Source: Planctomycetota bacterium (lineage in GTDB: Bacteria > Planctomycetota > B15-G4 > JADJEK01). Taken from it: a stretch of DNA of 64,000 bases. Below the pieces are notes generated by a model that had not been told where the DNA came from, made no database searches, and saw nothing but the letters and a program-made list of their open reading frames with translations. Shown here piece by piece: positions 14,572-30,645 of this stretch. The DNA lies in NCBI GenBank assembly GCA_016213895.1, contig JACQZJ010000117.1, forward strand, positions 2,361 through 66,360, given 5' to 3'. Made by a program: the position numbers and the translations under genes. Positions within the stretch are counted from its first letter, which is position 1; each line of letters starts with the position of its first letter.

Positions 14572-15048
14572 ATGGCCACGCGCGTGCTCTTCGTCTGCCT
14601 CGGGAACATCTGCCGCTCGCCGCTCGGCAAGGGGATCCTCCGCCACCTCGCGCGCGAGGCCGGGCTTGAAGCCGAGGTCGAGGTCGATTCCGCCGGCACC
14701 GGAACCTGGCGCCTGGGCGAGGAGCCGGACCCGCGCTCCGTCCAGGTCGCGGCGCGAAACGGCATCACCCTCGACCGCGTCCGCTCGCGCCTCGTCACGC
14801 TCGAGGACTTCGCGAAGAACGACCTGATTCTCGCCATGGATGCCAGGATCCTGGCTGACCTCCGCATGCGCTGCCCCGCCCCGCTCCAGCCGCGCCTTAC
14901 CCTCCTGCGCGCCTTCGATCCCGAAGGCCCCGGCGACGTGCCCGATCCCTTCCTCCTCGACGAGTCCGCCTTCGACGCCGTCTTCTCCATCATCCACCGC
15001 TCTTGTGTCCAGCTGCTGGAGCACCTCGCGCCGGGCCCGGGGCGGTGA
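14572..15048 (+). CDS. low-molecular-weight protein-tyrosine phosphatase
   Basis: VLFVCLGNICRSP P-loop (CX5R) at the N-terminus plus a DP motif near the C-terminus; length 158 aa. Confidence 0.8.
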   Translation: MATRVLFVCLGNICRSPLGKGILRHLAREAGLEAEVEVDSAGTGTWRLGEEPDPRSVQVAARNGITLDRVRSRLVTLEDFAKNDLILAMDARILADLRMRCPAPLQPRLTLLRAFDPEGPGDVPDPFLLDESAFDAVFSIIHRSCVQLLEHLAPGPGR

Positions 15049-15326
15049 GGTTGGCGCCTCCGGCCGCACCAGGCTGTCTCGGTGGCGAAACGCCGTTCGC
15101 TCGGCGGCAGCGACCGACCACTCCCCAACCGCGTTCTTCCACTTCATGCCCCGCCGCGCTACTCTGCGCATGGAAGACCACCACGCCGGACCTAACGCCT
15201 GGCTGGGTGGGACCTTCCGGAACGAGGGATCCAGGTGCTGCCGGATGATGCACCACGGGATGCGCTACAGGAAGTCCCAATCGCACAACACCCGACCGCA
15301 CCGTGCACCACGATGAGACGTGACCC

Positions 15327-16121
15327 ATGGGACGAATCCACCCCGACGCCGACGCAGCCTACTTCAGCCGGAAGCCCGAGGTCCGCCCGATCGCCCAGTC
15401 CTTCCTGTCCGCATTTGATGTGACTCGCGGCTTCACCAAGACCCGGGGCCAAGACCGCCTCGAATGCCTCTACCTTCGCGCCGAACCCTTCATCGCGGAG
15501 TTGATCGGGCTTGAGCGTGAGCTTCTTGTGGCCTACGCCCCCTTCCCCCAACTCCAAGCTCGAACCATCAAGCTTCACGACGACGTCGTCTCCGAAGATC
15601 GGATCCGAATCGACCCCGTCGGCACGGTACTCGTATGCGATGATCCGAAGACGACAGCAGCCGCACAGCAGTACCTCGTCACCGACCCAGAACGACCTCC
15701 CATCGTTGCCATCTCGCGTGCCGAGCTTCTGGCTATTCATGACGCTACCGCGCTCCGAGGACTCTTCGTTGAACATCTCTTCCGCCGCGACCTCTTCGCG
15801 CTCGAATCACCCCTCCGCACGGACACCACCTTCTTCGGCCGCACGGACATCGTCGCAGAGCTCTTCGACCGCTTCCGCGGTGGCCAGACTTCCGGGCTCT
15901 TTGGTCTCAGGCGAATCGGCAAGACATCTGTTCTCTATGCGCTCGGCCGCCGTGCGGAGAGCGGCGAGGTAGCGGGATCTGTTTACGTCGATCTCAGCAG
16001 CCCCGGAATCTACCAGCTCCGCTGGTGGGAACTCCTCCAGCGTGTAATGTCTGATCTTGCGAGCCCTCTCGGCCTCCAGCGCGCCGAACGCTCCAAGGTC
16101 AGCGCTATGACCATCCATTAA
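15327..16121 (+). CDS. AAA ATPase, Arch_ATPase (PF01637)-like, N-terminal portion; probably the 5' part of a frameshifted gene
   Basis: FFGRTDIVAELFDRFRGGQTSGLFGLRRIGKTSVLYAL matches the 'FfdReeEl..L…G.RRvGKTsLl' signature. The ORF ends at TAA only about 50 aa after Walker A with no Walker B. Local GC is clearly lower than the surroundings. Confidence 0.55.
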   Translation: MGRIHPDADAAYFSRKPEVRPIAQSFLSAFDVTRGFTKTRGQDRLECLYLRAEPFIAELIGLERELLVAYAPFPQLQARTIKLHDDVVSEDRIRIDPVGTVLVCDDPKTTAAAQQYLVTDPERPPIVAISRAELLAIHDATALRGLFVEHLFRRDLFALESPLRTDTTFFGRTDIVAELFDRFRGGQTSGLFGLRRIGKTSVLYALGRRAESGEVAGSVYVDLSSPGIYQLRWWELLQRVMSDLASPLGLQRAERSKVSAMTIH

Positions 16122-16141
16122 CGCGTGGCCAGTTCGGCTAC

Positions 16142-17113
16142 GTGCTCGCCGGCGTCAACCCTCACATCGTCGAAGCCGACCGTGTCGGGCGCTTCGACAA
16201 TCCCCTCTTCTCGACCACAAGAGCTTTCTTCCTCCGGCCATTCGACTTTCCGACGACGCGTGACATGGTCCGCCGCATTTCGCGCTTCATGGGCCTCCGC
16301 GTCGACGAGGTCGTCTTCAACCTCCTCTTCGAGGAGTACGGAGGGCATCCGTTCCTCGTTAGGCAGGCCTGCAGTCAGCTCGCACGGCATGTGCCGACCC
16401 GGCCCGGACAGCTGACGGCCGCCCTCTTCCAGAACGAGCGCGCGGCAATCGGATTGACCCTCCAGCGCAACGTTCGGCAGATCCTCAACGTCCTCGCCAT
16501 CTGGTACCCGGATGAATACGAGATGGTACAGCTGCTGGCACAAGGCGACGCGGTGAGCTTCATCGAGTTTGCGGTCGGAAGCGCCGAGTTTACCCAACAC
16601 GTCGAGGGATACGGTCTCGTCCGAGACGCGCGGACTGACCCCAGAATATCGCTTGGACTTGTCCGCAGCCACCTTGCCCGACAGCCGCGGCGGGCAGAGG
16701 AATCTGACCCGACAGATCAGGAATCCTTGGTGGTCGAGGTTTCGCGGCGACGCAACCGTATCGAACGTGCAATGCGGCGATTCCTTCGAGAGGGACTACT
16801 CTTCGCTCACGGCAAGAAGGCAATGGCCGAGGCAATGGCGGCGCTGCCCGAGGAGCGGCGCGCCATACTAGCGCAGTTCGGTTACGATCAGATGTGGACT
16901 GAACTGTACTTCAATGAGCTAACATCCATGCTCGATCTTCACTTCTCAGTCTTCCAGAAGCGATGGGGTGCGGACAAAGCATCGGTCATCCAATGGATGA
17001 ACCACGTAAACCGTTGCCGGTCAGACGCGCATGCCAAGCGACTTGGTGCAGACGACGTGGCGTACCTTCGCGTATGCTTTAAGCGGCTAGAGGAACTGCT
17101 TGAGCTTCAGTGA
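16142..17113 (+). CDS. C-terminal continuation of the ATPase (after a +1 frame change) ending in a Swt1-like HEPN motif
   Basis: The frame is open upstream of the annotated GTG across the 16119 TAA of the previous ORF. C-terminal NHVNRCRSDAHAK fits the R-x4-6-H HEPN motif. The ATPase body (Walker B region) would be expected here. Confidence 0.4.
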   Translation: MLAGVNPHIVEADRVGRFDNPLFSTTRAFFLRPFDFPTTRDMVRRISRFMGLRVDEVVFNLLFEEYGGHPFLVRQACSQLARHVPTRPGQLTAALFQNERAAIGLTLQRNVRQILNVLAIWYPDEYEMVQLLAQGDAVSFIEFAVGSAEFTQHVEGYGLVRDARTDPRISLGLVRSHLARQPRRAEESDPTDQESLVVEVSRRRNRIERAMRRFLREGLLFAHGKKAMAEAMAALPEERRAILAQFGYDQMWTELYFNELTSMLDLHFSVFQKRWGADKASVIQWMNHVNRCRSDAHAKRLGADDVAYLRVCFKRLEELLELQ

Positions 17114-17373
17114 CCATCGCCGTCGCAGCCATGGACGCATCGACGCAGTCCTGCAGGTTCTCCTGCATCACCACCGGCGTGCTTTGGAGGCTGCCCTCCG
17201 AGGGGACCGGACGTGCTCATCCAGATTCAGATCCGGCGGGTCCGGCGGCAAGTCAAGGGCAGGCGGGCGGCGCTTGTGCTCCTGCACAGAGCGACCTAAG
17301 AGCTGGAACCTCCGGCAAGGGTGAGCGATCCAGCGAGCGCAGGGTGTGGCACGAGGGACTGGGATGACAGTCT

Positions 17374-20300
17374 GTGACCAGCAGGGAGCGAGGTAACGTG
17401 GCTGAGACCAGCGGCGAGAGTCGGTTCCTCGACGGAGTCGGTCTTCGGCCGGTCACGCTGCCCTCGGGCGGTGCGTTCGTTCCCGTGGGCCTGGCGCTCG
17501 GGCAGGGCACGCAGCCCCAGGAAGTGCTGATCGTCTCTACCGCCGCGGCGCCGAGCGCGACCGCGCTGCGCTCGGCGTGGAGGGCCCGAAACGGCGGCCG
17601 CGCGGCGCCGCTGCTCTTCGTGGCGCTGCACGGCGAGCGGGTTTCCCTGTGCGGGCCGGCCGGCGACGACCCGCCGGCGTACCTGTCCCTGGACCGGGGC
17701 CAGGTCGAGCGGGTTTGCCGCGAGGCGCTCGAGCAGCCCGACCGCCACGCGGCCCTGCGGGCGCTGCGCGACGTGCTCCCGTCGCTCGAGTCCGACCTTG
17801 CGGGCCTGCGCAACGAGGGGTTCCTCGCGACGCACGAGCTGCGTGCGGGCGCAAGGCGTCGCGCCGACTGGGGAGAGGCGGGCCGCAAGGCTCGCGGCGC
17901 CCTCGCCAAGCGCGGCGCGGACCTGCTGCGCGCGCTCGGCTTTGGCATCGAGCGGCACGACGGCGCAACCTCGATCCTGCGCGCGGGCGAGCGCAAGGTC
18001 GCCGTCGCGGTGCTGCTCGCGCGTGATGAGTCGCCCGACCTCTCGGCAGAACGGTTCTCCGGCCTGTCCCCGATCTCATACGCCCTGGCCGTCGCCGACC
18101 GCGAGAGGCTGCCGTGGGTCGTCGTCCAGCACGGCGCGAAGGTGCGTGTCCACCCGACGCAGGTCGGCCAAGGCGTGGGACGGCGCGGACGGACCGAGAC
18201 CTACGTCGAGTGCCACTCCGGGCTCCTCCCCGACGCGGACGCAGCCTACCTCTGGCTGCTCTGCTCGGGCGACGCCCTGGCGCCAGGCGGCACGCTCGAG
18301 CAGATCCTCGAGGCCTCGGGCCGCTTCGCGGGCGACCTGGCCTCGCGCCTGCGCGAGCGGGTCTACCAGTCCGTGGTGCCAGGTCTCGCCCAAGCCATCG
18401 TTCGCACCCGCGGCCTGCGCCAGCCGAGCGCGCAGGACCTGGCCGACACCTACGAGATGGCGCTCACGGTCCTCTTTCGGCTGCTCTTCATCGCCTACGC
18501 CGAGGACAAGGACCTCCTGCCCTACCGCTGGAACGGCCTGTACCAGCGCCGCTCGCTGAAGACCAAGGCGCAGGAGCTGGCGGACCTGGCCCGCAGTGGC
18601 GCTCCCTTCGACGCGAGCGACACGCTCTGGGAAGAGGTGAGCCGCCTCTTCCGCGCCGTGGACCGCGGCAACCGCGAATGGGGCGTGCCGGCCTACGACG
18701 GCGGGCTCTTCTCGGAGGAGCGGGAGGTCTCCGCAGCGGGCGCGCTCCTCGCCGGCCTCTCGATCCCCAACACCGTGTTCGGCCCGGCGCTCGCGGGCCT
18801 CCTGCTCGTCGAGGGTGCCGAGGGCCTCGGTCCTGTGGACTTCCGCAGCCTCGGCGTGCGCGAGTTCGGGACGATCTACGAGGGGCTCCTCGAGAGCGAG
18901 CTGTCGGTCGCGGAGACCGACCTGGCCGTGGACAAGAACGGCGCCTTCCGTCCATGCAGGAAGGCTGAACCGCCCACGGTCGCGCGTGGCGAGGTGTACC
19001 TGCACGACGCCTCGGGGACGCGGAAGTCCACCGGCTCGTACTTCACCAAGTCGTTCGCCGTGGAGCACCTGCTGGAGCGCTCGCTCGAACCCGCGCTCGG
19101 CGAACACCTCGGCCGGCTCGACCAGCTCGGCGAGGAGGAGGCGGGCGAACGCTTCTTCGACTTCCGCGTCGCGGATCTCGCCATGGGCTCCGGGCACTTC
19201 CTGGTCGCGGCCGTGGACCGGATCGAGCGCGCGCTCACGGGCTACCTCTCGCGGCGGCGGCTGCCGGCGGTGGCCGCGGAGCTCTCCAGCCTGCGCGCCG
19301 CCGCGCTGGAGACGCTCGGGCCGCTCGCCGACCAAGTCGAGATCGAAGACACCCAACTCCTGCGCCGCCTGATCGCCCGCCGCTGCATCTACGGCGTCGA
19401 CTTGAACCCGACGGCGCTGCAGCTCGCGCGGCTCTCGATCTGGATCCACACCTTCGTGCCGGGCCTGCCGCTCTCGCTCCTCGACCACAGCCTCGTGCGC
19501 GGCAACTCGCTCGTCGGCATCGGCCGGCTCGCGGAGGTCAAGGAAAAGCTCGAAGAGGGAAGCCTCCCGCTCTTCCCTCTCGATGCGGCCTCGCTGCTCG
19601 GCGCGGCGGCCGAGCCCCTGAAGCGCCTGGCGCGGCTCGCCGACGCCACGGCCTCCGACCTGGCGCGAGCGCGCAGGGCGCAGCAGGCGGCGCTGGCCGC
19701 GGTCGCGCCGGCCGCGGCGCTCTGCGACCTGGTGACCGCCGCGCGACTGGCCTGCGAGATGGTGAAGCTGGACCCCGCGAAGTGGCATGAGATCCGCGAC
19801 CGGCTGCCCGGATCGAAGGAGCACCAGGCCGCTGCCACTCGGCTCGACGGGCTCCACACGTTCCACTTCCCCGTGGCGTTCCCCGAGGTGTTCCTGCGCG
19901 AGCGGCCGGGGTTCGACGTGATCGTTGGGAACCCGCCGTGGCAGGAGGCGACGCTGGAAGAGGACGCGTTCTGGGCAAGGCACTCGCCCGGGCTGCGCTC
20001 GCTCCCGCAGCGCGAGCAGGAGGTGGCGAAAGCGAAGCTCCGCCGCGAGCGGCTCGACTTGTTCGCGACCTACGAGCGCGAGCTGGCGGAGGCAGAGGTG
20101 CTGCGGCGCGCGCTCACGGCTGGGCCGTACCCGGGAATGGGCACGGGCGACCCGGACCTCTACAAGGCCTTCTGCTGGCGCTTCTGGAACCTAGCCTGCG
20201 AGGACGGCGGGCGCATCGGCGTTGTCCTGCCGCGCTCGGCGCTTGCGGCCAAGGGCTCGACGGAGTTCCGGCAGGAGCTGTTCTCGCACGCCGAGGCTGT

Positions 20301-21432
20301 GGACGTGACCACGCTCCTCAACACGAAAGGATGGGTGTTCGACGAGGCGGAACACCGCTACACGATCGGCCTCGTCGCGGTCGCGCGCCGCACGGCCGAG
20401 CGCACTCCCGTCGCGCTGCGCGGCCCCTACCCGAACCTCGAGCGCTACACGGACGGCGTCGTGCGCGAGCCGGTCGTCTTCTACGGCACCGACATTCGGA
20501 CCTGGAACGATACCTCGTCGCTCCCGCTGCTCCCTACAGACGGGTCGGTCGGGGTCTTCGCCCAGCTTCGCAAGGCGCCGCGGCTCGACCTCGACGACAG
20601 GAAGTCCTGGCGTGCCCGGCCGCACACCGAGCTGCACGCCACGAACGACAAGGGCCTCATGGACCTCAAGTCCAAGGGCCGGCCGAAGGGCTTCTGGCCC
20701 GTCTACAAGGGCGAGTCGTTCGACCTATGGACTCCCGACACAGGGACCTACTACGCCTGGGCAGATCCGGAGAAGCTGCTGCCGCACCTCCAGGACAAGC
20801 GCCTGCGCGGCGGGCGGAACCGCAAGTCGCCCTTCGCCGAGTTCGACGTGCGCGTACTCCGCGACCAGAAGACGCTGCCGTGCCTGCGGCCGCGGATCGC
20901 CTTCAGGGACATCACGAACCGCACGAACCAACGTACCGTGATCGCCGCACTCGTGCCTCCGGACGTGTTCGCCACGAACAAGGGGCCATACCTCCTCTGG
21001 CCCCGTGGCGATGCAGGCGATGAGGCGTACCTTCTCGCCGTCCTCTCCTCGCTTCCCCTCGACTGGTACGCCCGCCGGTTCGTCGAGGTGAACGTGAACT
21101 TCTTCGTCTTCAACCCGTTCACAATCCCTCGCACGCCGGCCGAGCACCCGCACCGCCGTCGCGCCATCCAGTTGGCCGCTCGCCTCGCCTGCCCCGACGA
21201 CCGCTTCGCCGTCTGGGCCAGGGAGGTCGGCGTCGCCTGCGGCCCGCTGGCCGCTGACGAGAAGGACGACATGATCCGCGAGCTCGACGCCGTCGTCGCC
21301 CACCTCTACGGCCTCTCGGAGAAGCACCTCATCCACATCTTCGAGACCTTCCACGAGGGCTGGGACTGTGACGTGCGCCTGCGCGCGACGCTGAAGCACT
21401 TCCGGGACTGCAAGCGGAGGGCCACGCCATGA
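17374..21432 (+). CDS. large N6-adenine DNA methyltransferase, type IIG / BREX-PglX-like (1352 aa)
   Basis: Motif I ADLAMGSGHFLVAAVD (about aa 600) and motif IV VIVGNPPWQEA (about aa 850), gamma-class order. About 600 aa N-terminal region with possible PD-(D/E)xK-like HDGATSILRAGERKV. About 450 aa C-terminal target-recognition-like region. TGA overlaps the ATG of the next gene (ATGA). Confidence 0.75.
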   Translation: MTSRERGNVAETSGESRFLDGVGLRPVTLPSGGAFVPVGLALGQGTQPQEVLIVSTAAAPSATALRSAWRARNGGRAAPLLFVALHGERVSLCGPAGDDPPAYLSLDRGQVERVCREALEQPDRHAALRALRDVLPSLESDLAGLRNEGFLATHELRAGARRRADWGEAGRKARGALAKRGADLLRALGFGIERHDGATSILRAGERKVAVAVLLARDESPDLSAERFSGLSPISYALAVADRERLPWVVVQHGAKVRVHPTQVGQGVGRRGRTETYVECHSGLLPDADAAYLWLLCSGDALAPGGTLEQILEASGRFAGDLASRLRERVYQSVVPGLAQAIVRTRGLRQPSAQDLADTYEMALTVLFRLLFIAYAEDKDLLPYRWNGLYQRRSLKTKAQELADLARSGAPFDASDTLWEEVSRLFRAVDRGNREWGVPAYDGGLFSEEREVSAAGALLAGLSIPNTVFGPALAGLLLVEGAEGLGPVDFRSLGVREFGTIYEGLLESELSVAETDLAVDKNGAFRPCRKAEPPTVARGEVYLHDASGTRKSTGSYFTKSFAVEHLLERSLEPALGEHLGRLDQLGEEEAGERFFDFRVADLAMGSGHFLVAAVDRIERALTGYLSRRRLPAVAAELSSLRAAALETLGPLADQVEIEDTQLLRRLIARRCIYGVDLNPTALQLARLSIWIHTFVPGLPLSLLDHSLVRGNSLVGIGRLAEVKEKLEEGSLPLFPLDAASLLGAAAEPLKRLARLADATASDLARARRAQQAALAAVAPAAALCDLVTAARLACEMVKLDPAKWHEIRDRLPGSKEHQAAATRLDGLHTFHFPVAFPEVFLRERPGFDVIVGNPPWQEATLEEDAFWARHSPGLRSLPQREQEVAKAKLRRERLDLFATYERELAEAEVLRRALTAGPYPGMGTGDPDLYKAFCWRFWNLACEDGGRIGVVLPRSALAAKGSTEFRQELFSHAEAVDVTTLLNTKGWVFDEAEHRYTIGLVAVARRTAERTPVALRGPYPNLERYTDGVVREPVVFYGTDIRTWNDTSSLPLLPTDGSVGVFAQLRKAPRLDLDDRKSWRARPHTELHATNDKGLMDLKSKGRPKGFWPVYKGESFDLWTPDTGTYYAWADPEKLLPHLQDKRLRGGRNRKSPFAEFDVRVLRDQKTLPCLRPRIAFRDITNRTNQRTVIAALVPPDVFATNKGPYLLWPRGDAGDEAYLLAVLSSLPLDWYARRFVEVNVNFFVFNPFTIPRTPAEHPHRRRAIQLAARLACPDDRFAVWAREVGVACGPLAADEKDDMIRELDAVVAHLYGLSEKHLIHIFETFHEGWDCDVRLRATLKHFRDCKRRATP

Positions 21433-22832
21433 GCTCCGACGAGCCCTCGGTGACACAGCGACCGGGGAGCGGTGCTGGCGCCCCGGCGAGCACCAAGTGG
21501 AAGGCGCACCGCGTCAGGGCCGGCTTGCACCACTGGGAGGACGATGAACCGCCGGCGGACCCGGGTCAGCACCGAAAGCGCATCGAGCCGTGGCTTGCCG
21601 CCCTGCTCCAGGCCGAGCACGTGAGCCTCCTCATCGGGGGCGGGATCACGATCGCGGTCGCGAAGCTCGCGGGCGCTCCGATCGTCGACATGAAGGCGAC
21701 CCCATTCACGTGCGATCTTGCTGCCGCGGTGGACAGGGCCGCCAAGGCGACCGCCCGCCTTACCGGCCGTGGCGAGGCCAACATCGAGGACCAGATCCGT
21801 GCGGCTCGCGAGCTGATCGGGGGTCTGCGCATCGTGGCCGCAGACGGCGATCAGGGCCTCTTCGGCGTTCGGCCAGGGGAGCTTCTCGCCGCGTGGCAAG
21901 ACGCGGTCGACGAACGCTTGCGATCCTTGCTGCGCGGCGTACTGCGGACCGAGCGCGGGATCGAGCAAGCGCTCGGTTCGCCAGGCAGCGACGGGGACCG
22001 GATTCGGCGGATCCTCTGTTCCTTCCTGCTCTCCTTCGCAAGTCGCACGGCCACCCGCGAACGCCTGCACATCTTCACCACGAACTACGACCGCGTTGTG
22101 GAGCGCGGCTGCGACCTCCTGGGGCTGCACGTCCTCGACCGGTTCGTCGGTCGGCTGAAGCCGATCTTCCGTGCATCCCGGCTCGGAATCGACCTCCACT
22201 ACAATCCGCCGGGCATCCGCGGCGAGCCCCGCTACTTGGAGGGCGTCGTCCGCCTGACCAAGCTCCACGGGTCCATCGACTGGCGACACGAAGGAAGTGG
22301 CGAAGGTGGCCCACGGATCGTGCGCGCGGCACTGCCTTTCGGGGCACCCGATGACCACCAAAAGCTGCCGGAGCACCCGCGCGATGGTCTGATCGTGTAC
22401 CCGAACCCGGCCAAGGACACGGAGACGCTCGAGTACCCCTACGCTGAGCTGTTCCGCGACCTGGCGGCAGCCGCCTGCCAGCCGAACGCAGTGCTCGTCA
22501 CCTACGGCTACGGCTTCGGCGACGACCACATCAACCGCGTGTTGCGCGACACGCTGACGATACCCTCCACTCACCTCGCGATCCTCTCCCGCGACGGAGC
22601 CTCGGGACGGATCCAGCGCTTCGTCGAGGCCACGGGCCGCGACGAGCAGATCACGCTGCTCCTCGGCGGCCACTTCGGCGATCTTGCGACGCTCGTCGAG
22701 TACTACCTGCCGAAGCCCGCGATCGACAGGACGACTTGGCGCATGGTGGAGCTCCTCAACCGGCGCACGCAGCATGGTGCGAACGAGGCGAGATCCGCGT
22801 CGGACGAACCCGATGCTGGAGGTCCGGAATGA
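21429..22832 (+). CDS. SIR2-like domain protein (SIR2_2 family, predicted NAD+-hydrolysing defence effector)
   Basis: HIFTTNYDRVVERG and TKLHGSIDW motifs, with an N-terminal Rossmann GGG patch (HVSLLIGGGITIAVAKLAG). ATGA overlap with the methyltransferase and with the HerA gene. Confidence 0.7.
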   Translation: MSSDEPSVTQRPGSGAGAPASTKWKAHRVRAGLHHWEDDEPPADPGQHRKRIEPWLAALLQAEHVSLLIGGGITIAVAKLAGAPIVDMKATPFTCDLAAAVDRAAKATARLTGRGEANIEDQIRAARELIGGLRIVAADGDQGLFGVRPGELLAAWQDAVDERLRSLLRGVLRTERGIEQALGSPGSDGDRIRRILCSFLLSFASRTATRERLHIFTTNYDRVVERGCDLLGLHVLDRFVGRLKPIFRASRLGIDLHYNPPGIRGEPRYLEGVVRLTKLHGSIDWRHEGSGEGGPRIVRAALPFGAPDDHQKLPEHPRDGLIVYPNPAKDTETLEYPYAELFRDLAAAACQPNAVLVTYGYGFGDDHINRVLRDTLTIPSTHLAILSRDGASGRIQRFVEATGRDEQITLLLGGHFGDLATLVEYYLPKPAIDRTTWRMVELLNRRTQHGANEARSASDEPDAGGPE

Positions 22833-24967
22833 CCTCCCTCATCGAGGCGCTCGGCGACCGCGCCATCGGGGCCGTGGAGGAGGTCTCCGCAAACGCGATC
22901 TCCGTGCTCCTCGATCCCGACGCCCCGCAGGCGACCGCTCTCAACGCGGGTAGCCCCGCTGGGTTCCCACGGATCAACGGGTACCTCCTCGTTCCCAACG
23001 AGGGTGGCGCGACGGTAGGACTCGTCACGCGAGTCCAGATCGTGCGGCTCCCGTATCCGAAGCGTCGCGGGATGCAGGACTTCGGGCTTGTGGACCTGCC
23101 GTTCCCGGCTCGTGTGCTGTCGCTGACGCCCCTCGGGACTCTGCTCGCCAGGGCCGGAGGTTCTGGAAGGGACCTGAGCTTCCGGGTTCGCCGCGGCGTC
23201 GACGTCTTCCCGTCCGTCGGCGACCCCGTGGTCCTGCCGACGGAAGCACAGCTCCGGGCGATCGTCGAGGGCGAGGATGATGGACAGGCCCGGCGCATTC
23301 TCCTCGGCACATGCCCCACGGCCGCGAGTGCACCGGTACACGTGGATCCCGACAAGCTCTTCGGGCGCCACCTCGCCGTGCTCGGCAACACCGGCGCAGG
23401 CAAGTCCTGCTCGGTTGCCGGGCTCATCCGCTGGTCGCTCGACGCGGCGCGTAGGGCGAGGACGGAAGCCGAGCGGGGCGATAAGCCCAACGCGCGCTTC
23501 ATCGTGCTCGATCCGAACGGCGAGTATGCGAAGGCCTTTGCCGGGCTCAACGCTCGCCTGTTCCAGGTCTCGCCCCAGGGTGACGGGAAGGCACTCAAGG
23601 TCCCGGCGTGGCTCTGGAACGGGGAGGAGTGGGCAGCTTTCACGGGCGCAGCGCCGGGCGTGCAGCGGCCGATCCTGTTCGATGCAATCCGACGCCTGCG
23701 GTCGGGGGCCGGGACACCGGATACGTTCCAGTCTCGCGCTCGCGGTCGGATCAGACGGTACCGGACGGGGCTACGGCTCAAGGTTCAGGGAGGAGACCAC
23801 CTCCAGGCTGGCAGGCGAGAGGGAGTGGCCCAACTCCTCCTGAATTGTACGCAGGACTTCGAGGATCTTGCAGGAGACGCGGAGTGCTCTGATGAAGGCT
23901 TGAGAGACCAGTTCCGTTCAGTCGCGAAGAAGTGTCGGGAGGTCGAGGAAGCGGCCCGAGGCAAGACTCGGGACGGTGGACACTGGCACAACGATTTTGC
24001 GGAGACGAACCTCGAAACAGTTCAAGCGGCGCTGGGCGAAGTCGCCTCCGCTGTGGGATTGTCCGAGGACGAGTCCGGTCTGAGCGAGGACGCACCGCGG
24101 TTCTTCCCGGCAAGGGAACTGCCCGGCTTCGTGGACGCCCTGGCGGCAGACGCGACGGGCCGCGACCTGGCCCAATTCGTGGACTCGCTCAATCTTCGCA
24201 TCCGAGGTCTCTTCGCCGGGGGACCGCTGGCGTCTGTGCTCGATCCTGGGGACTCGCCTTCGGTGACGCTGGATGAGTGGCTGACCGATCATGTTGGCGC
24301 AGACGAGGCGGCCAACGGAGCCCTAGCGATCGTCGACCTCTCCCTGGTCCCGTCCGAGGTCATCCACATCGTCGTGTCTGTCCTGGCACGCATGGTGTTC
24401 GAGGCGGTGCAGCGCTACCGGCGGACTCACGCATCCGTGCTGCCTACCGTTCTGGTTCTGGAGGAAGCTCACACTTTCGTCCACCGCGACCTGACCGCTG
24501 ACGGGGCGCCGCCGGCCGGCAGGGTCTGCTGCCGGACCTTCGAGCGGATCGCCCGGGAGGGACGGAAGTTCGGGCTCGGTCTCGTCCTCGCCTCGCAGCG
24601 TCCGTCCGAGATGTCGGCCACCGTGCTCTCCCAGTGCAACACCTTCCTGCTGCATCGGATCGTCAACGATCGCGACCAGGACCTCGTCCGACGTCTCGTG
24701 CCAGACGCGCTCGGCGACTTGCTGCGCGAGCTACCGAGCCTTCCCTCCCGGCGGGCGATCCTCCTCGGCTGGGCCGCTCCGGCTCCAGTGCTCATGGAGA
24801 TCCGGGAGGTGCCCGAAGCTCAGAGGCCTCACTCGCCGGACCCGGACTTCTGGGACGTCTGGACAGGGAAGAGCCCGCGCGGGATCGACTGGAAGGTGAT
24901 TGCTGATGCCTGGACAGGCACGAAGGAGCTGGGAGGACTTGCCGAGCAAGGAGCCGAACTGTGGTAG
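22829..24967 (+). CDS. HerA-like (FtsK/HerA superfamily, DUF87) ATPase, partner of SIR2
   Basis: Walker A LAVLGNTGAGKSCSVAGL, Walker B VLVLEEAHTFV, arginine-finger region ASQRPSEMSATVLSQCNTFLLHRI. Start set at the ATG overlapping the SIR2 stop. Confidence 0.8.
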   Translation: MTSLIEALGDRAIGAVEEVSANAISVLLDPDAPQATALNAGSPAGFPRINGYLLVPNEGGATVGLVTRVQIVRLPYPKRRGMQDFGLVDLPFPARVLSLTPLGTLLARAGGSGRDLSFRVRRGVDVFPSVGDPVVLPTEAQLRAIVEGEDDGQARRILLGTCPTAASAPVHVDPDKLFGRHLAVLGNTGAGKSCSVAGLIRWSLDAARRARTEAERGDKPNARFIVLDPNGEYAKAFAGLNARLFQVSPQGDGKALKVPAWLWNGEEWAAFTGAAPGVQRPILFDAIRRLRSGAGTPDTFQSRARGRIRRYRTGLRLKVQGGDHLQAGRREGVAQLLLNCTQDFEDLAGDAECSDEGLRDQFRSVAKKCREVEEAARGKTRDGGHWHNDFAETNLETVQAALGEVASAVGLSEDESGLSEDAPRFFPARELPGFVDALAADATGRDLAQFVDSLNLRIRGLFAGGPLASVLDPGDSPSVTLDEWLTDHVGADEAANGALAIVDLSLVPSEVIHIVVSVLARMVFEAVQRYRRTHASVLPTVLVLEEAHTFVHRDLTADGAPPAGRVCCRTFERIAREGRKFGLGLVLASQRPSEMSATVLSQCNTFLLHRIVNDRDQDLVRRLVPDALGDLLRELPSLPSRRAILLGWAAPAPVLMEIREVPEAQRPHSPDPDFWDVWTGKSPRGIDWKVIADAWTGTKELGGLAEQGAELW

Positions 24968-24978
24968 GGAGGCTCCGC

Positions 24979-26124
24979 ATGATCCGCGTGGAGATCCAAC
25001 CCCAAATGCTGCGCTGGGCACGCGAGCGCGCCGGCCTCAGCGTGGCGATGCTCGCCAAGCGCTTCCCCAAGCTCGACGCCTGGGAGCGCGGCGAGGCGAG
25101 GCCCACGCTCAACCAGCTCGAGAGCTTCGCCAGGGCCACGTGCACGCCGGTCGGCTTCCTGTTCCTGCAGGAGCCGCCGGTGGAGAGGGTCCCGATCCCC
25201 GACTTCCGCACGGTGGACAACATCCACGTCGGACATCCGAGCCCCGACCTCCTGGACACCGTCTACATCTGCCAGCAGCGACAGGAGTGGTACCGAGACT
25301 TCGTCCGGTCCACGGGCGAGGATCCCCTGGTCTTCGTCGGCTCGGCGCAAGCGGGCGACGACGTGGTGACGACCGCCTCGCGCATGCGGCGGGCGGTCGG
25401 GTTCGACCTCGAGGAGCGCCGCCGGATGCCGACCTGGACCGAGGCCCTGCGGCGCTTCATCGAGCGGGCCGACACTCTCGGCGTCCTGGTCATGTGCAGC
25501 GGCGTGGTGGGAAGCAACAACCGCCGGCGGCTCGATCCCGGCGAGTTCCGAGGCTTCGCCATCGCCGACGGCCTGGCTCCTCTCGTGTTCATCAACGGCG
25601 CGGACACCAAGGCCGCGCAGATGTTCACGCTGGCGCACGAACTTGCGCACATCTGGCTCGGCGAGACCGCGCTCTCGGACGCGCGCGCGGCGGCGCTTCC
25701 GGATCACGACGTCGAGCGCTGGTGCAACCTGGTGGCGGCGGAGTTGTTCGTGCCTCTCGCCACGATGCGCGCCGAGTACCGTCCCGACTTGCCGCTGCGA
25801 GCGGAGATGGACCGGCTGGCGCGGCGCTTCAAGGTCAGCACGCTGGTCGTGCTGCGGCGGATCCACGACGCCGGCGGCCTCACCCGCGAGGAGCTGTGGG
25901 CCGCGTACGAACGGGAGGTGGAACGGCTGCGCGCCCTGCCGCGGGGCAGCGGCGGGAACTTCTACCTGACCCAGGCCGCCAGGGTCAGCGAGCGCTTCGC
26001 GCGCGCGCTCGTCATGAACACCTTGGAGGGCCAGACGCTCTATCGCGACGCCTTGCGCATGCTGGGCTTCTCCAAGGTCGGCACCCTGCACGAGCTGGGA
26101 CGGAGCCTGGGAGTGCTCGCCTGA
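24979..26124 (+). CDS. XRE-type HTH domain fused to ImmA/IrrE family (M78) zinc metallopeptidase
   Basis: N-terminal HTH (MLRWARERAGLSVAMLAKRF), HEXXH at TLAHELAHIWLGE. RBS GGGAGG 6 nt before the ATG. 12 nt after the HerA stop. Confidence 0.75.
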   Translation: MIRVEIQPQMLRWARERAGLSVAMLAKRFPKLDAWERGEARPTLNQLESFARATCTPVGFLFLQEPPVERVPIPDFRTVDNIHVGHPSPDLLDTVYICQQRQEWYRDFVRSTGEDPLVFVGSAQAGDDVVTTASRMRRAVGFDLEERRRMPTWTEALRRFIERADTLGVLVMCSGVVGSNNRRRLDPGEFRGFAIADGLAPLVFINGADTKAAQMFTLAHELAHIWLGETALSDARAAALPDHDVERWCNLVAAELFVPLATMRAEYRPDLPLRAEMDRLARRFKVSTLVVLRRIHDAGGLTREELWAAYEREVERLRALPRGSGGNFYLTQAARVSERFARALVMNTLEGQTLYRDALRMLGFSKVGTLHELGRSLGVLA

Positions 26125-26636
26125 TGGGGTACCTGCTCGACGCCAACGTGTTCATGCAGGCAAAGAGGTTCCACTACGGCTTCGACTTCTGCCCGGCGTT
26201 CTGGGACTGGCTGGTGGCGCGCAACGCCGCGGGCGACGTCTTCAGCATCGAACGGGTCGAGGACGAGATCCAGGCGGGGGGCGATCAGCTCGCGGAGTGG
26301 GCCGCCGAGCGCGGCTCCGGCTTCTTCCTCAAGCCCGACGCCGCCATCCTGGCCGCACTGCGGAAGGTCAGCGCCTGGGTCACCGCCAAGGCCTACGAGC
26401 CGGCCGCCGTCAGCACGTTCCTCCAAGTCGCCGACTACTACCTGGTCGCGCACGCGCTTGCCCACGGGCTGACCGTCGTCACCCACGAGAAGGCCTCCAC
26501 ATCGACGAAGACGGTCAAGATCCCGGAGCCATGCATCGGCCTCGGGGTCAAGTGCATGAACCCCTTCGAGATGCTGCGGCGCGAGCGGGCCCGCTTCGTC
26601 CTCGGGCCATCCGGGGCAGGGAGCTCTGGTCCATGA
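26124..26636 (+). CDS. DUF4411 family PIN-like domain protein (usual partner of ImmA/IrrE proteases)
   Basis: MGYLLDANVFMQAKRFHYGFDFCPAFWDWL N-terminus is characteristic of DUF4411. ATGA overlap with the ImmA gene. Confidence 0.6.
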   Translation: MGYLLDANVFMQAKRFHYGFDFCPAFWDWLVARNAAGDVFSIERVEDEIQAGGDQLAEWAAERGSGFFLKPDAAILAALRKVSAWVTAKAYEPAAVSTFLQVADYYLVAHALAHGLTVVTHEKASTSTKTVKIPEPCIGLGVKCMNPFEMLRRERARFVLGPSGAGSSGP

Positions 26637-27334
26637 CCACCGCCACCATCTTCGTCAGCAACGTGCAGAAGGAGCTGGCCGAGGAGCGGCGGGTGGTCAA
26701 GGCGTTCGTCGAGGGCGACCCGTTGCTGCGTCGCTTCTTCACGGTGTTTCTCTTCGAGGATCTGCCGGCCGCGGACGCCCGCACCGATGCCGTGTACCTC
26801 GATGAGGTGGACTGCTCGGCGCTGTACGTCGGCCTCTTCGGGAGCGAGAACGGCTTCGAGGACGCAGAGGGCGTCTCTCCTACCGAACGCGAGTTCAACC
26901 GGGCCACCGAGCGGAGCACACCGCGGCTCATCTTCGTCAAGGGAACGGACGACCGCGCGCGGCATCCGAAGATGGCGGCGCTGGTCCATGGCGCCGGGAA
27001 CGAGCTGATCCGCCAGCGCTTCCGGGACATTTCCGAGCTGCCGGCCGCGCGTGTCCGCCGGACCCCCGAAGTCACCCCCGAAGTCGCCCCCGAAGTCACC
27101 CCGGAAGTCACCCCGGAAGTTCGCCTCGTGCGAGCCCTCCGTAGAGAGATGACACGCCACGAGCTCCGGGAGGCTCTCAGGCTCAGGGATGACAAGCACT
27201 TCCGCCAGGCGTTCCTCTACCCGGCGATCGAGGCTGGATTGGTCGAGATGACGATTCCGGACAAGCCCCGCAGCAGCAAGCAGAAGTACCGCCGTACCGC
27301 CAAGGGCACGGCAGCAGCAAGGGGCAAGAAGTGA
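26630..27334 (+). CDS. DUF4062 (TIR-like) domain protein with (TPEV)5 linker repeat and C-terminal wHTH (…EMTIPDKPRSSKQKYRRTAKG)
   Basis: N-terminus IFVSNVQKELAEERRVVKAF…VYLDEVDCSALYVGLFGSENGFE resembles DUF4062. The C-terminal tail resembles the DNA-binding wHTH found at the ends of RecG-C / Fic / AlbA_2 proteins. 7-nt overlap upstream, GTGA overlap downstream. Confidence 0.5.
   Translation, partial: SMTTATIFVSNVQKELAEERRVVKAFVEGDPLLRRFFTVFLFEDLPAADARTDAVYLDEVDCSALYVGLFGSENGFEDAEGVSPTEREFNRATERSTPRLIFVKGTDDRARHPKMAALVHGAGNELIRQRFRDISELPAARVRRTPEVTPEVAPEVTPEVTPEVRLVRALRREMTRHELREALRLRDDKHFRQAFLYPAIEAGLVEMTIPDKPRSSKQKYRRTAKGTAAARGKK
27062..27121 (+). repeat. 12-bp tandem repeat x5 (CCCGAAGTCACC) encoding (TPEV)5 inside the DUF4062 gene
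   Basis: Direct reading: acccccgaagtc / acccccgaagtc / gcccccgaagtc / accccggaagtc / accccggaagtt. Confidence 0.8.
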
Positions 27335-30300
27335 AGGATCTCGACGAATCCGACGCCCCGGCCGCCAGGCCCCTGTTCATCGACAACCGCGAAGGGAACA
27401 CCCTCGCGCGGGCGATCACGGCGCACCTGGCGACCCTGCGGCGCGCAGGGCTCATTCCCGCGGAATTGTGCGTCGCGAGCTGCTACTTCAACCCCCAGGG
27501 ACTGGAGCTGATCGCCGGGGAGGTGCGGCACGTGCCGCGCGTCCGACTGCTGCTCGGCGCGGACCCGACGCCCGAGGCGTTCCTTCCGCAGCGTACGCCC
27601 TACGACCCCACCGAGCCCGAATTCACGCACCAGCGCGTGAGCCAGGGGCTCGCGCGGCTCGAGCGCGCGCTCCGGCAGGATCGCGACCTCCTCCCCTTCA
27701 GCCTGGAGGAGGATGGCGCGATCCGGCACCTGCTCGACTTCCTGCGCTCGGGCCACATCGAAGTGCGCCGCTACGAGGGTCACTTCCTGCATGCCAAGGC
27801 GTTCGTGTTTCGCGGTGCAGAGCGGGGGATCCTCGCCGGATCGGCCAACCTCACGCGCGCCGGACTCGAGACCAACCTGGAGCTGGTGCTGGGCCACCAC
27901 CAGGATCCGCTCGTCGCGCGCGTCGAGGAGTGGTTCGAGTCGCTCTGGCGCGAGGCGGCGCCGTTCGACTTGGCAGCCATCTACGCGGAGCTGCTGGCCG
28001 AGGTGCCGCCCTACCTGGTCTATCTGAAGGTCCTCTGGCACCTCTACCACGCCGAGCTGGAGCAAGAGGAGAAGGAGACGGGCAGAATCCCGATCACGAC
28101 CTTCCAGAAACATGGCGTGTGGCGCGCGCGGAAGATCCTCGCCAGGTACGGTGGGGTGATGATCGCCGACGGCGTAGGGCTGGGGAAGACCTTCACGGCG
28201 GGTGAGATCATCCGCGACTACCGCGAGCGGCGGCAGCGCGTGCTGCTCGTCTGCCCCGCCAGCCTGCGCGACACCACCTGGGCGCGCTTCCTGAACGACC
28301 ACCAGCTCCTCGTGGAGTGTCTGTCCTACGAGGAGCTGGCCAACGACGCACAGCTCGGCGGGGACAAGAGCCGCCTGAAGAACCCGCTCGACGACTACGC
28401 CCTCGTGGTCGTGGACGAGGCGCACAACTACCGCAATCCCGACACCGCCAAGCGGGCCGCGATCCTGCGGCGGCTGCTCGCTGGGAAGCGGCGCGACCTG
28501 GTGCTTCTGACCGCGACGCCGGTCAACAACTCGCTCTGGGACCTCTACCACCTGCTGCGCTTCTTCATGAAGCAGGACGCCTGGCTGGCCGACCGCGGCG
28601 TGCTCTCGATGCGCGAGCGCTTCGAGCAGGCCATGCGCGCTGATCCCTTCAACCTGAGCCCGGATTTGCTCTACCCGATCATCGACGCGACGACCGTCAA
28701 GCGCACGCGGCGGTTCATCAAGAAGCACTACGCGAGCGACATGATCCGCGGCCCGGACGGACGCCTGGCGGCGATCCGTTTCCCGAAGCCCGTCGCCCTG
28801 TCGATCGGCTACGACCTGGACGCGGCCCTGCCGGGCTTCCTCGCCCGCCTCGAGGAGATCCTCATGCCCGAGGGCGGGCGCCCCCTGCTGCACATGGCCC
28901 GCTACCAGCCCGAACGCTACCCCGCGGACGGGAGCGACGCCGGCGACGACACGGCGCTGGTCGGACTGCTGCGCTCGGCGCTTCTGAAGCGCTTCGAGTC
29001 GTCGGGCGAGGCGTTCCGGCGCACCGTGGTGCGGATGATCCGGCAGCACGAGATCTTTCTCGAGGCGCTCTCGCGTGGCTGGATCGTGTACAGGGAGTTC
29101 TTCCGGGAGATGTCGGCGGCCGAGGACGAGGGAGACAGCGAGGAGATCATCGAGGCAAGCGAGCAGGTCGAGGACGCCTCGGCCTTCGACGTGGCGCGGC
29201 TCGGCGCGGACGTGCGGTCGGACCTGGCACTCCTGCGAGAGATGGCGGCCGAGGCGGCGAAGGTACGGCCCGAAGACGACCCGAAGCTCGCGGCGTTGGT
29301 CGAGACGCTGGCCGAGTGCGCGCGGCAGGCCGACGCGGAGGCGGCCGACGAGGAGGACGCGCACCAGAACCGCAAGGTACTGGTCTTCTCCCACTACGAG
29401 GACACCATCGACTGGATCGAGGAGCACCTGCGGAAGGCGATCGAGCGCGACGCGCGCCTGGCGGCGTATCACGGCCGCGTGGCGTCGGTGAGCGGGGCCG
29501 ACGAGCGCGGCGGCGTGGCGCGGGACAAGGCGCTGCATGGGTTCGCGCCGATCTCGACGGGGGCGCTGCCGCCCGACGCCGAGGACCGCTTCGACCTGCT
29601 GCTTTGCACCGACGTGCTGGCGGAGGGCATGAACCTCCAGCAGTGCCGGAACGTCGTGAATTACGACCTGCCCTGGAACCCCATGCGCCTGGTGCAGCGG
29701 CACGGCCGCGTGGACCGGATCGGGAGCGCGCATCCGAAGGTGTTCCTGCGCACCTTCTTCCCCGGCGCGCAGCTCGACGCCATGTTGAACCTCGAGGCGC
29801 GGGTGCGCCGGAAGCTCGCGCAGGCGGCGGCGTCCGTGGGCGTGGAGGAAGCGCCCATCGAAGGTGGCGCCGAGGCGGAGCGCTCCTTCGCGGAAACCCG
29901 CGAGGAGATCGAGAGGCTGCACCGCGAGGACGCTTCGATCTACGAGGCCGGGGGCACCGAGGGCGCGGCCCAGACCGGCGAGGAGTACCGGCAGGAGTTG
30001 CGGCGAGGCCTGGAGAGGTACGGCGATGCCATCCACGACCTCCCGTGGCGTTCCGGCTCTGGGATGCGCAAGGGGGACCGCGCCGGGCACGTCTTCTGCG
30101 CGACGGTCGGCGACCGCGTCTACCTGCGCTTCGTACCGCGCGAGGCGGCGGCCGAGGTCGTCGGCGAGCTCGGAACCTGTCTGCGCCTGATCGAGTGCAG
30201 CGAGCACACGCCGCGGGTCTTGAGCACGGAGATGGTGCTGGCGGCCTACGACGCCTGGGCGCGAGCGCGCCAGGGCATCCTCGCCGCCTGGACCTTCGAG

Positions 30301-30645
30301 ACCGATCCGGCCAACCTGCAGCCCAAGATCAGGAAGCTCAACCGCGACGTCGCCGCGTTCCTGCGCGCGCACCCGCCCGACGTGGACCAAGAGCGTCTCA
30401 ACCGGGCGCTCGACGCGGTGGAGTCACCCTGGCCGCGGCGGGAGGAGCATGCCCTGCGCGATGCCTGGGAGCGCACATACGCGTCGAACACAGAGAAGGC
30501 GAAGGCCCTCGTCGAGCAGATCGAGAGCATCGGAGCTGAGCCCTTCCACGCCCCGGACCCGCTGCCGCCGATTGCGGAGGAGGAGATCCACTTGGTCGCC
30601 TGGTTGGCGCTCGAGGCCGAAGTAGCACAGCGAGGCGCCGGGTGA
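27331..30645 (+). CDS. PLD-family (HKD) nuclease domain fused to SNF2-family helicase/translocase (1104 aa)
   Basis: Single HKD motif EGHFLHAKAFVFRG…GSANLT near the N-terminus. SNF2 motifs: ADGVGLGKT (I), VVVDEAHNYRN (II), LLTATPVNNS (III), LLCTDVLAEGMNLQQ (V), QRHGRVDRIG (VI). GTG start overlaps the upstream TGA. Confidence 0.8.
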   Translation: MKDLDESDAPAARPLFIDNREGNTLARAITAHLATLRRAGLIPAELCVASCYFNPQGLELIAGEVRHVPRVRLLLGADPTPEAFLPQRTPYDPTEPEFTHQRVSQGLARLERALRQDRDLLPFSLEEDGAIRHLLDFLRSGHIEVRRYEGHFLHAKAFVFRGAERGILAGSANLTRAGLETNLELVLGHHQDPLVARVEEWFESLWREAAPFDLAAIYAELLAEVPPYLVYLKVLWHLYHAELEQEEKETGRIPITTFQKHGVWRARKILARYGGVMIADGVGLGKTFTAGEIIRDYRERRQRVLLVCPASLRDTTWARFLNDHQLLVECLSYEELANDAQLGGDKSRLKNPLDDYALVVVDEAHNYRNPDTAKRAAILRRLLAGKRRDLVLLTATPVNNSLWDLYHLLRFFMKQDAWLADRGVLSMRERFEQAMRADPFNLSPDLLYPIIDATTVKRTRRFIKKHYASDMIRGPDGRLAAIRFPKPVALSIGYDLDAALPGFLARLEEILMPEGGRPLLHMARYQPERYPADGSDAGDDTALVGLLRSALLKRFESSGEAFRRTVVRMIRQHEIFLEALSRGWIVYREFFREMSAAEDEGDSEEIIEASEQVEDASAFDVARLGADVRSDLALLREMAAEAAKVRPEDDPKLAALVETLAECARQADAEAADEEDAHQNRKVLVFSHYEDTIDWIEEHLRKAIERDARLAAYHGRVASVSGADERGGVARDKALHGFAPISTGALPPDAEDRFDLLLCTDVLAEGMNLQQCRNVVNYDLPWNPMRLVQRHGRVDRIGSAHPKVFLRTFFPGAQLDAMLNLEARVRRKLAQAAASVGVEEAPIEGGAEAERSFAETREEIERLHREDASIYEAGGTEGAAQTGEEYRQELRRGLERYGDAIHDLPWRSGSGMRKGDRAGHVFCATVGDRVYLRFVPREAAAEVVGELGTCLRLIECSEHTPRVLSTEMVLAAYDAWARARQGILAAWTFETDPANLQPKIRKLNRDVAAFLRAHPPDVDQERLNRALDAVESPWPRREEHALRDAWERTYASNTEKAKALVEQIESIGAEPFHAPDPLPPIAEEEIHLVAWLALEAEVAQRGAG

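Follow-up and report, generated by a model that had tools for sequence, protein, structure and literature searches.

Organisation of the locus

We analysed 64,000 nucleotides (nt) of a Planctomycetota bacterium (assembly GCA_016213895.1, contig JACQZJ010000117.1, positions 2,361-66,360 of the forward strand), a stretch with a G+C content of about 70% that is called the window below. It contains a SIR2-HerA pair, i.e. a SIR2 NADase gene followed by the gene of a HerA ATPase, directly behind the gene of a 1352-residue gamma-class N6-adenine methyltransferase. A preliminary description of this DNA had reported the arrangement together with its ATGA junction, and we confirm the open reading frames (ORFs), the coordinates and both overlaps. 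The ATG of SIR2 at 21429 lies inside the TGA of the methyltransferase (ccATGAgc), and the ATG of HerA at 22829 lies inside the stop codon of SIR2 (ggaATGAcc), with an overlap of 4 nt in each case.

The three genes are part of a longer array. Four further genes past HerA, up to position 30645, belong to the same packed operon, giving seven co-oriented genes on the + strand in 13.3 kb (17374-30645), Table 1. HerA and the HTH-M78 gene are separated by 11 nt, with a GGGAGG Shine-Dalgarno sequence ahead of the HTH-M78 start. The HTH-M78 and DUF4411 genes overlap by 1 nt (TGATG), and the DUF4062 gene overlaps DUF4411 through ATGA and the PLD-SNF2 gene through GTGA. Because all genes are co-oriented and joined by 4-nt or 1-nt overlaps or by the 11-nt gap with its Shine-Dalgarno sequence, the layout supports co-expression of all seven.

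Table 1. Genes of the 17374-30645 operon. Coordinates are positions in the window, GC3 is the G+C fraction at third codon positions and E-values follow the name of the matched model.
Gene product	Place in operon	Coordinates	Strand	Length (aa)	Matches	GC3
Methyltransferase, PglX/DrmMI-like, gamma-class N6-adenine	core gene 1	17374..21432	+	1352	Pfam Eco57I 4e-15; PADLOC REase_MTase_IIG PDLC03620 8e-291, full length	0.915
SIR2 NADase	cargo	21429..22832	+	467	PDLC04079 7e-166; NF042942; Pfam SIR2_2 6e-8	0.838
HerA ATPase/translocase	cargo	22829..24967	+	712	DUF87 1.6e-21; PDLC04098 2e-260, full length	0.788
HTH (XRE)-M78 (ImmA/IrrE, CapH-CapP-like) metallopeptidase fusion	slot gene	24979..26124	+	381	Peptidase_M78 3.3e-16; HTH_31; RmrA/CapP models	0.927
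DUF4411 PIN-like protein	slot gene	26124..26636	+	170	DUF4411 1.8e-55; weak PIN match	0.918
DUF4062 + Fic-like_C (winged-helix) protein	slot gene	26633..27334	+	233		0.850
PLD(HKD)-SNF2 (RapA/BrxHII/DrmD-like) translocase	core gene 2	27331..30645	+	1104	C3a139 'HKD+Snf2' 2e-55; PADLOC DrmD 4e-46; DISARM_DrmD 7e-55; DrmC_I weak, 1e-4	0.921

Some alternative gene calls were rejected. TTG 22736 was discarded as the HerA start for ATG 22829, and GTG 24961 as the M78 start for ATG 24979, which has the GGGAGG ahead of it. An ORF at 26297-27334 (345 residues, called DUF4062) is mis-started, as its 5' third overlaps DUF4411 in another frame; the true start is ATG 26633.

Promoter and terminator predictions for 15000-32500 gave no useful signal: promoter-like sites numbered 0, and there were 4 terminator-like sites where 6.1 were expected. 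There is no tRNA gene in the window and no integrase beside the operon, so the operon is not an obvious mobile island.

The methyltransferase resembles PglX and DrmMI

Both motifs named in the preliminary description are present in the methyltransferase, motif I (DLAMGSGHFL) at residues 601-610 and motif IV (NPPW) at residues 853-856. Motif I ahead of motif IV, combined with a C-terminal target-recognition region, defines the gamma class. A Planctomycetes metagenome-assembled genome (MAG) encodes a hypothetical protein of identical sequence. The methyltransferase consists of family-specific N-terminal alpha/beta domains (residues ~20-300), a helical domain of the HsdM/PglX kind (residues ~300-480), the methyltransferase core and the C-terminal target-recognition region.

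According to the AlphaFold model of residues 1-600 (predicted local distance difference test, pLDDT, 81.6), two alpha/beta domains are followed by the helical domain. A Foldseek search of this model against the PDB gave nothing significant, nucleases included, and the profile of the methyltransferase family matched no PDB sequence at E < 0.01. The N-terminal alpha/beta domain has weak matches to restriction-endonuclease folds. For the model of residues 560-1352 (pLDDT 78.4) the best Foldseek match is BrxX/PglX (4.5e-12), followed by CamA, M.BseCI, BpuSI and M.TaqI, all five at 1e-12 to 1e-7, and PglX is the closest match of both the helical domain and the methyltransferase domain. PglX is a methylase without a nuclease.

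In the N-terminal region a possible PD-(D/E)xK-like patch, HDGATSILRAGERKV, had been proposed. It is found at residues 195-209, and in the predicted structure it lies on the right strands of the alpha/beta domain for such a site. However, it is not conserved. Counted over 77 members of the family, D196 is kept in 55 and D/E206 in 56, while the lysine at position 208 is present in only 22 and replaced by arginine in 48. Nearby residues, for instance N147, R258, R271 and T276, are kept in no fewer than 76 of the 77. On this conservation pattern we rejected a PD-(D/E)xK nuclease in the N-terminus. The first 310 residues were found solely at the N-terminus of the protein's own family, among 768 cluster representatives.

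The protein thus has one half of what characterises a type IIG enzyme: a gamma-class methyltransferase and a target-recognition domain are joined in one polypeptide, but a conserved endonuclease site in the same polypeptide was not found. Its resemblance is to PglX of BREX and DrmMI of DISARM rather than to a type IIG enzyme.

The conserved partner of the methyltransferase

To describe the surroundings of the family, relatives of the methyltransferase were collected by a pattern search built from an alignment of homologues, which identified a relative in at least 293 species. We took the 80 best loci, each with flanks of 10 kb, compared the window proteins with them by tblastn, and clustered all-against-all every ORF of at least 120 residues in the 80 loci and the window. 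Individual loci are referred to by L numbers where needed.

In 70 of the 80 loci, from many phyla, the methyltransferase has a PLD-SNF2 gene downstream of it and on its strand. Among the ten loci that lack it, just three have more than 4 kb of downstream DNA. In the window it starts about 6 kb downstream, but 39 of the 70 loci have the two genes side by side. An NTGA overlap joins them in 18 of these 39, and some ten others have at most 4 nt between stop and start. Since such overlaps or spacings of at most 4 nt are seen where nothing separates the two genes, ATGA is the usual coupling of this methylase to any next gene.

No other gene is conserved in more than 17 loci, and the other large clusters are shadow ORFs inside the two core genes. 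A third conserved gene (DrmA/B, DUF499, DUF3780, PglZ or BrxC) was not present among the clustered ORFs of the 80 loci and the window. From these neighbourhoods, the conserved partner of the methyltransferase is the predicted PLD-SNF2 nuclease-helicase. The coupling of methyltransferase and SIR2 in the preliminary description therefore stands as co-expression within a seven-gene operon. It does not stand as a specific partnership, as PLD-SNF2 follows in 70 of 80 loci while SIR2-HerA is present in 1 of the 70 genome loci.

The two-gene form is seen in Planctomycetota, Proteobacteria, Acidobacteriota, Gemmatimonadota, Chloroflexota, Actinomycetota and on haloarchaeal plasmids. The pair is also found at 40-46% identity on Rhodococcus and Paenarthrobacter plasmids, where it is annotated as 'hypothetical protein' and 'SNF2 helicase'. 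The mean column identity of the core family is 61-66%. We found no description of a two-gene methylase and PLD-SNF2 form in the literature searched.

The PLD-SNF2 protein starts with a PLDc_2 domain (residues 133-206), which is followed by SNF2-rel_dom and Helicase_C. All motifs are intact, both those of the nuclease, HAK...GSANL (HxK...GSxN), and those of the helicase, GLGKT, DEAH and QRHGRVDRIG (motif VI). By sequence, the closest solved relative of the helicase is RapA. In one close relative (L165:7826-11138) the PLD domain (360 residues) and the SNF2 helicase (746 residues) are called as two overlapping genes, which may be either a frameshift or a natural split.

The slot between the core genes

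In 30 of the 70 loci the two core genes are separated by a variable slot of 0.7-7.2 kb. The HTH-M78 and DUF4411 genes of the window occur in the slot of 13 related genome loci, with DUF4411 as the usual companion of HTH-M78. Other cargo includes Shedu SduA (4e-149), PDC-M61A/B, a Ppl-like ATPase, AlbA_2/HATPase_c_4, DUF6119, HNH, a 2005-residue NACHT STAND protein, Mrr_N, MerR-HicB, ORF6N, AAA_14/DUF4143 and several proteins without a family match.

Even in the nearest homologues of the methyltransferase (81-83% identity) the cargo differs from that of the window. One has a 451-residue protein, a Dam-like methylase and M78/DUF4411, another an AAA_15/21 ATPase with DUF4276, and a third small ORFs, M78/DUF4411 and MazE-PIN. 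The turnover of the slot is therefore fast relative to the divergence of the core.

The HTH-M78 and PIN-like proteins resemble, in their predicted domains, the CapH/CapP damage-responsive regulators. In a Nocardia DISARM locus a CapH-CapP fusion and a VapC-like gene accompany drmD-drmMI (10.1101/2022.04.27.489752). Two loci (L044:14020-17907 and L046:14014-17465) carry two to three tandem HTH-M78 paralogues, 41-49% identical to that of the window, followed by a single DUF4411 and PLD-SNF2.

Some of the cargo is poorly annotated. This holds for the 2005-residue NACHT STAND protein (L080:15030-21047), a 748-residue protein without a family (L039:14096-16342), a 648-residue protein with a weak PDC-M33A match (L007:14026-15972) and a DUF6119 protein (L005:13966-15609, 3.6e-140). 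By analogy with other embedded genes we consider these four to be candidate defence genes.

The DUF4062 protein of the window corresponds, in shortened form and with a (TPEV)n linker, to a DUF4062-AlbA_2/HATPase_c_4 protein of ~490-556 residues. The long form is found directly after HerA in L054:17483-19009 and L082:5464-7311. Outside the methylase family it is found directly before SIR2, with a 4-nt overlap, in L151:8178-9848. The protein may be an accessory or a regulator of the SIR2-HerA clade to which the window belongs.

SIR2-HerA and its neighbourhoods

The SIR2 gene has its motifs intact (GGG, TTNYD and KLHGS), and it is adjacent, in the same operon, to a DUF87-type HerA with intact Walker A (GNTGAGKS) and Walker B (LVLEEAH) motifs. 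SIR2 has a low-complexity N-terminal extension of about 45 residues. The NCBIfam equivalog scores of the pair are under the cut-offs (113 against 500 and 205 against 850), and we therefore place it in a divergent subfamily.

Third-position G+C sets SIR2-HerA apart as compositionally foreign. The methyltransferase, M78, DUF4411 and PLD-SNF2 genes are host-like, close to the window background of 0.917, whereas SIR2, HerA and DUF4062 are low, see Table 1.

Among the genome loci with the core pair, the one with SIR2-HerA in the slot is L054, a Planctomycetota MAG with 80% and 85% identity to the pair in the window. It forms one small clade with the window and two metagenome contigs, L081 and L082, which also carry SIR2-HerA in the slot. 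In all four loci of the clade NTGA is kept at both the methyltransferase/SIR2 and the SIR2/HerA junction, although ATG and GTG starts alternate.

We also started from the SIR2 protein and scanned metagenome contigs with it, which gave 80 loci at 42-81% identity. HerA adjoins SIR2 in every one of these whose contig runs past SIR2. The methyltransferase described here lies upstream of SIR2 solely in the two closest relatives, L081 (81%) and L082 (73%). All SIR2 relatives of at most 63% identity with upstream sequence are without it.

The upstream neighbour could be assessed in the 41 of the 80 loci that have at least 2.5 kb of upstream DNA. A restriction-type gene (helicase, nuclease or methylase) lies immediately upstream of SIR2-HerA in 25-26 of these 41, a count that includes near-duplicate contigs (L147~L152, L091~L099, L095~L098, L114~L115, which are also part of the other SIR2-HerA counts) and comes without a matched control rate for other abortive-infection systems. 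The neighbours are type III Res (seven loci), HKD-Snf2/DUF4391 (four), Mrr-helicase (two) and HmaA/BrxH-like (two), then single cases of HsdR, HsdM, HmaC, PLD_Helicase and a DrmMI-like giant methylase, and also beta-class methylases and other ResIII helicases. The upstream neighbour is co-oriented with SIR2 in 36 of the 41, many within 50 nt or overlapping. On the other side, the downstream neighbour is an N6_N4 methylase in 8 of 34 loci.

The preliminary description had suggested a methylation-aware trigger of the NADase, which is unsupported by the present evidence. The partners are so varied that they suggest generic embedding, or a back-up, rather than a trigger that reads modification. 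What stands is a looser link of SIR2-HerA with modification and restriction genes of many types.

Several individual arrangements deserve description. Double embedding is found in L136:5896-20460, L141:5983-20378, L147:938-14442 and L152:913-13961, where the order is HKD-Snf2 (C3a139 1.5e-119), DUF4391, SIR2, HerA, type III Mod, PDC-S05 and type III Res. The same type III system, with SIR2-HerA appended after Res, is present in L094, L103, L092 and L110. In L089:685-15427 SIR2-HerA comes directly after a locus of the Hma/BR type with a DUF1156 methylase and PLD_Helicase. In L087:1086-17873 it comes directly after a 1848-residue DrmMI-like methylase and is followed by PDC-S68.

Genes flanking the operon

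Ahead of the methyltransferase, the genes at 15327-17367 and, on the minus strand, at 11721-14474 were rejected as parts of the system, as they have no counterparts in related loci. Two consecutive ORFs on the + strand, 15327-16121 and 16142-17113, lie in a stretch of lower G+C (0.62-0.66) and have no Pfam or PADLOC match. Together they resemble a single P-loop ATPase (GLRRIGKTS) that a stop codon has divided, carry a HEPN-like Rx5H motif (RCRSDAH) at the C-terminus and may be a decayed neighbouring defence gene. Downstream, 21 nt past the stop of PLD-SNF2, there is an ORF with a DUF1697 domain (30666-31373, Pfam 1.5e-6), which is not conserved in related loci.

Interpretation of the locus

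We think it likely that the locus is a nested defence operon, in which SIR2-HerA is embedded in a two-gene, restriction-modification-like system of a methylase and PLD-SNF2. By analogy with type III, type ISP, DISARM class 1 and ARMADA systems, the methylase would mark host DNA and probably supply the sequence recognition. The PLD-SNF2 protein would be targeted by the methylase to unmarked DNA, translocate on it and cut it. The core genes would normally be translationally coupled through the NTGA overlap, and their junction would serve as a hotspot for the exchange of unrelated defence or toxin cassettes, possibly by recombination between the conserved flanking genes. Three modules appear to have lodged here, SIR2-HerA, HTH-M78 with the DUF4411 PIN-like protein, and the DUF4062 winged-helix protein. 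HTH-M78 and DUF4411 could form a CapH/CapP-type regulator or a toxin-antitoxin-like module. SIR2-HerA would most likely be the abortive-infection machine already described, self-contained and working independently of its neighbours, i.e. a HerA hexamer with a SIR2 12/14-mer that depletes NAD+ and has nuclease/ATPase activity. Co-transcribed with the restriction layer, it would add a second, abortive one.

Two observations count against this reading, both being compatible with functional coupling. Both the conserved 4-nt overlaps around SIR2-HerA and the frequent position of the SIR2-HerA subfamily behind restriction-type genes exceed what plain stacking predicts.

PrrC is kept latent by EcoprrI, a type I enzyme, until inhibition of restriction by a phage peptide sets it free. 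SIR2-HerA could in the same manner be a dedicated back-up, wired to the neighbouring restriction machinery and triggered when the methyltransferase/PLD-SNF2 complex is inhibited or stalled, or by DNA ends or fragments that the complex produces. The restriction-type genes immediately upstream of its relatives, the prevailing co-orientation, the N6_N4 methylases downstream and the NTGA overlaps kept throughout the clade all fit with this, as does the lack of a known natural trigger for SIR2-HerA (PMC11472057). PrrC, moreover, is almost exclusively embedded in type I restriction-modification (RM) systems (10.1101/2024.01.29.577857). However, the partners of SIR2-HerA come from at least five unrelated system types with differing methylase classes, and a specific protein or methyl-mark interface common to them is hard to envisage. 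About 40% of the loci have no restriction-type neighbour, and the slot of the methyltransferase family takes many unrelated cassettes. Cloned by themselves into heterologous hosts, published SIR2-HerA systems still give defence (PMC11514479, PMC11472057). The SIR2/HerA of Streptococcus thermophilus, which Kelleher et al. found between or downstream of R/M systems, likewise protects on its own (PMC11514479). A dedicated wiring to the neighbours is for these reasons unlikely.

In a wider form of this idea, the SIR2-HerA subfamily would be a restriction-associated back-up layer, habitually co-transcribed behind restriction helicase-nucleases (type I, type III, Hma-like, HKD-SNF2 and the methylase/PLD-SNF2 pair of the window) and fired by failure, stalling or inhibition of the motor or by its DNA products. 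We hold this to be quite unlikely. If it were true, the trigger of SIR2-HerA would be identified and the guard principle of PrrC-EcoprrI generalised, and in any case the high adjacency to restriction genes is a testable lead on SIR2-HerA activation.

It is very improbable that the methyltransferase is a self-sufficient type IIG enzyme, with SIR2-HerA, M78/PIN and PLD-SNF2 as independent neighbours by chance. The full-length match to the PADLOC type IIG model would agree with it, as would the large size of the enzyme and the weak restriction-endonuclease-fold matches of its N-terminal domain. Against it, PLD-SNF2 follows the methylase in different phyla and also on plasmids, the stop and start codons often overlapping, the D...(D/E)xK residues are not conserved, no significant nuclease match was found in the PDB and PglX is the best match. 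The preliminary description had reasoned that an ordinary type IIG endonuclease at the N-terminus, in a family whose related loci lack SIR2-HerA, would reduce the locus to stacked islands. Related loci do almost always lack SIR2-HerA, but the N-terminus is not such an endonuclease.

Finally, the core pair might be a decayed, non-functional leftover of a DISARM class 1, ARMADA, BREX-3 or Hma/BR system, with SIR2-HerA as the sole active defence, as suggested by the matches to DrmMI (methyltransferase) and to DrmD, BrxHII and HmaA (helicase) and by the absence of DrmA/B, YprA, DUF499 and PglZ, but this is scarcely credible, as the two-gene arrangement is conserved in 70 loci of several bacterial phyla and on haloarchaeal plasmids, neither protein is truncated or lacks a catalytic motif, the mean column identity of the family is 61-66%, and the nuclease fused to the helicase supplies the effector otherwise given by a separate DrmC.

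With the locus read as a nested operon, a family with members in at least 293 species, which now go under 'type IIG enzyme' or 'hypothetical protein', would be half of a two-gene system, which makes the label an annotation trap. Standard tools would report the locus as three stacked systems, not as one system hosting others. The junction of the core genes is a compact and searchable hotspot. Nearly half of the loci have cargo, much of it uncharacterised (for example the 748-residue, 648-residue and DUF6119 proteins), and the slot offers a cheap 'guilt-by-embedding' source of new defence candidates.

Comparison with known systems

The SIR2 and HerA genes correspond to the SIR2-HerA system (GAO_19/'Nezha'), a supramolecular complex that depletes NAD+ (PMC11472057, PMC11514289). 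Like it, they form a NADase and ATPase pair with strong matches to the family hidden Markov models and intact motifs. They differ in that the pair lies inside the operon of another system and is translationally coupled to the upstream methylase.

For the core pair, close relatives are DrmMI and DrmD (with DrmC) of class 1 DISARM and ArmB and ArmA of ARMADA, where a PglX-like methylase is also found beside a RapA/BrxHII-like SNF2 helicase and a PLD nuclease. The predicted core proteins are homologous to DrmMI and DrmD, with scores below the curated NCBIfam cut-offs. The DrmMI match (1e-69) is partial, covering residues 530-857, and the DrmD match (7e-55) scores 187, the cut-off being 610. The DISARM core triplet of DrmA, DrmB (DUF1998) and DrmC was not found in scans of the window or in the 80 loci with their 10-kb flanks. 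In contrast to DISARM and ARMADA, the system of the window and its related loci has only two genes, without DrmA/DrmB or a YprA-family helicase, the methylase comes first and the helicase of the window carries the PLD domain as an N-terminal fusion. From BREX, PglZ and BrxC are absent in the window and among the conserved neighbours, and the NCBIfam PglX models score 20-30 bits against 400-900.

The type-2 BREX-related (BR) and Hma systems, which have been proposed to be RM-like (Rakesh & Krishnan 2026, PMC12839542; Payne et al.), share an effector made of an HKD endonuclease and a Swi2/Snf2 helicase together with an N6-adenine methylase, and they also frequently have embedded genes. As in Hma, the HKD nuclease is fused N-terminally to the Swi2/Snf2 helicase. 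However, what defines BR and Hma is a DUF499 ATPase, a DUF1156 methylase into which a recognition domain is inserted and, for type 2, DUF3780. None of these has a Pfam or PADLOC match in the operon, no third gene is conserved, and the methylase of the window is of the Eco57I/PglX type, gamma-class, with a C-terminal recognition region.

A PglX/DrmMI-like methylase with a BrxHII/DrmD-like helicase is a module common to DISARM-I, ARMADA and BREX-3 (PMC12458937). The core pair has neither the extra genes that define these systems nor those of BR/Hma, and its helicase carries its own PLD nuclease. It can be described as a stripped-down relative of DISARM-I, ARMADA, BREX-3 and Hma. It differs from type IIG/IIL enzymes (MmeI, BpuSI) and type ISP enzymes (LlaGI) in that its methylase has no conserved nuclease site, a second protein carries nuclease and motor, and this nuclease belongs to the PLD type, not to PD-(D/E)xK or Mrr.

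The layout as a whole is that of embedded defence, as known for prrC in EcoprrI, TgvAB in a Vibrio type I RM system and Septu in Hma, where a co-oriented, self-contained cassette lies between the genes of a modification system. Embedded cargo varies between related host loci ('guilt by embedding', 10.1101/2024.01.29.577857; PMC11411939). As in the definition of Payne et al. 2024, a cassette on the same strand lies here inside one system, and related loci are without it or have other cargo. The host differs from the known cases in being a two-gene pair of which PADLOC sees just a 'type IIG' gene, so that the embedding would be missed. SIR2-HerA as embedded cargo is not discussed in 10.1101/2024.01.29.577857 or PMC11411939. 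The locus is thus a known kind of embedded defence with a known cargo, SIR2-HerA, in an unnamed two-gene relative of the DISARM/ARMADA/BREX-type systems.

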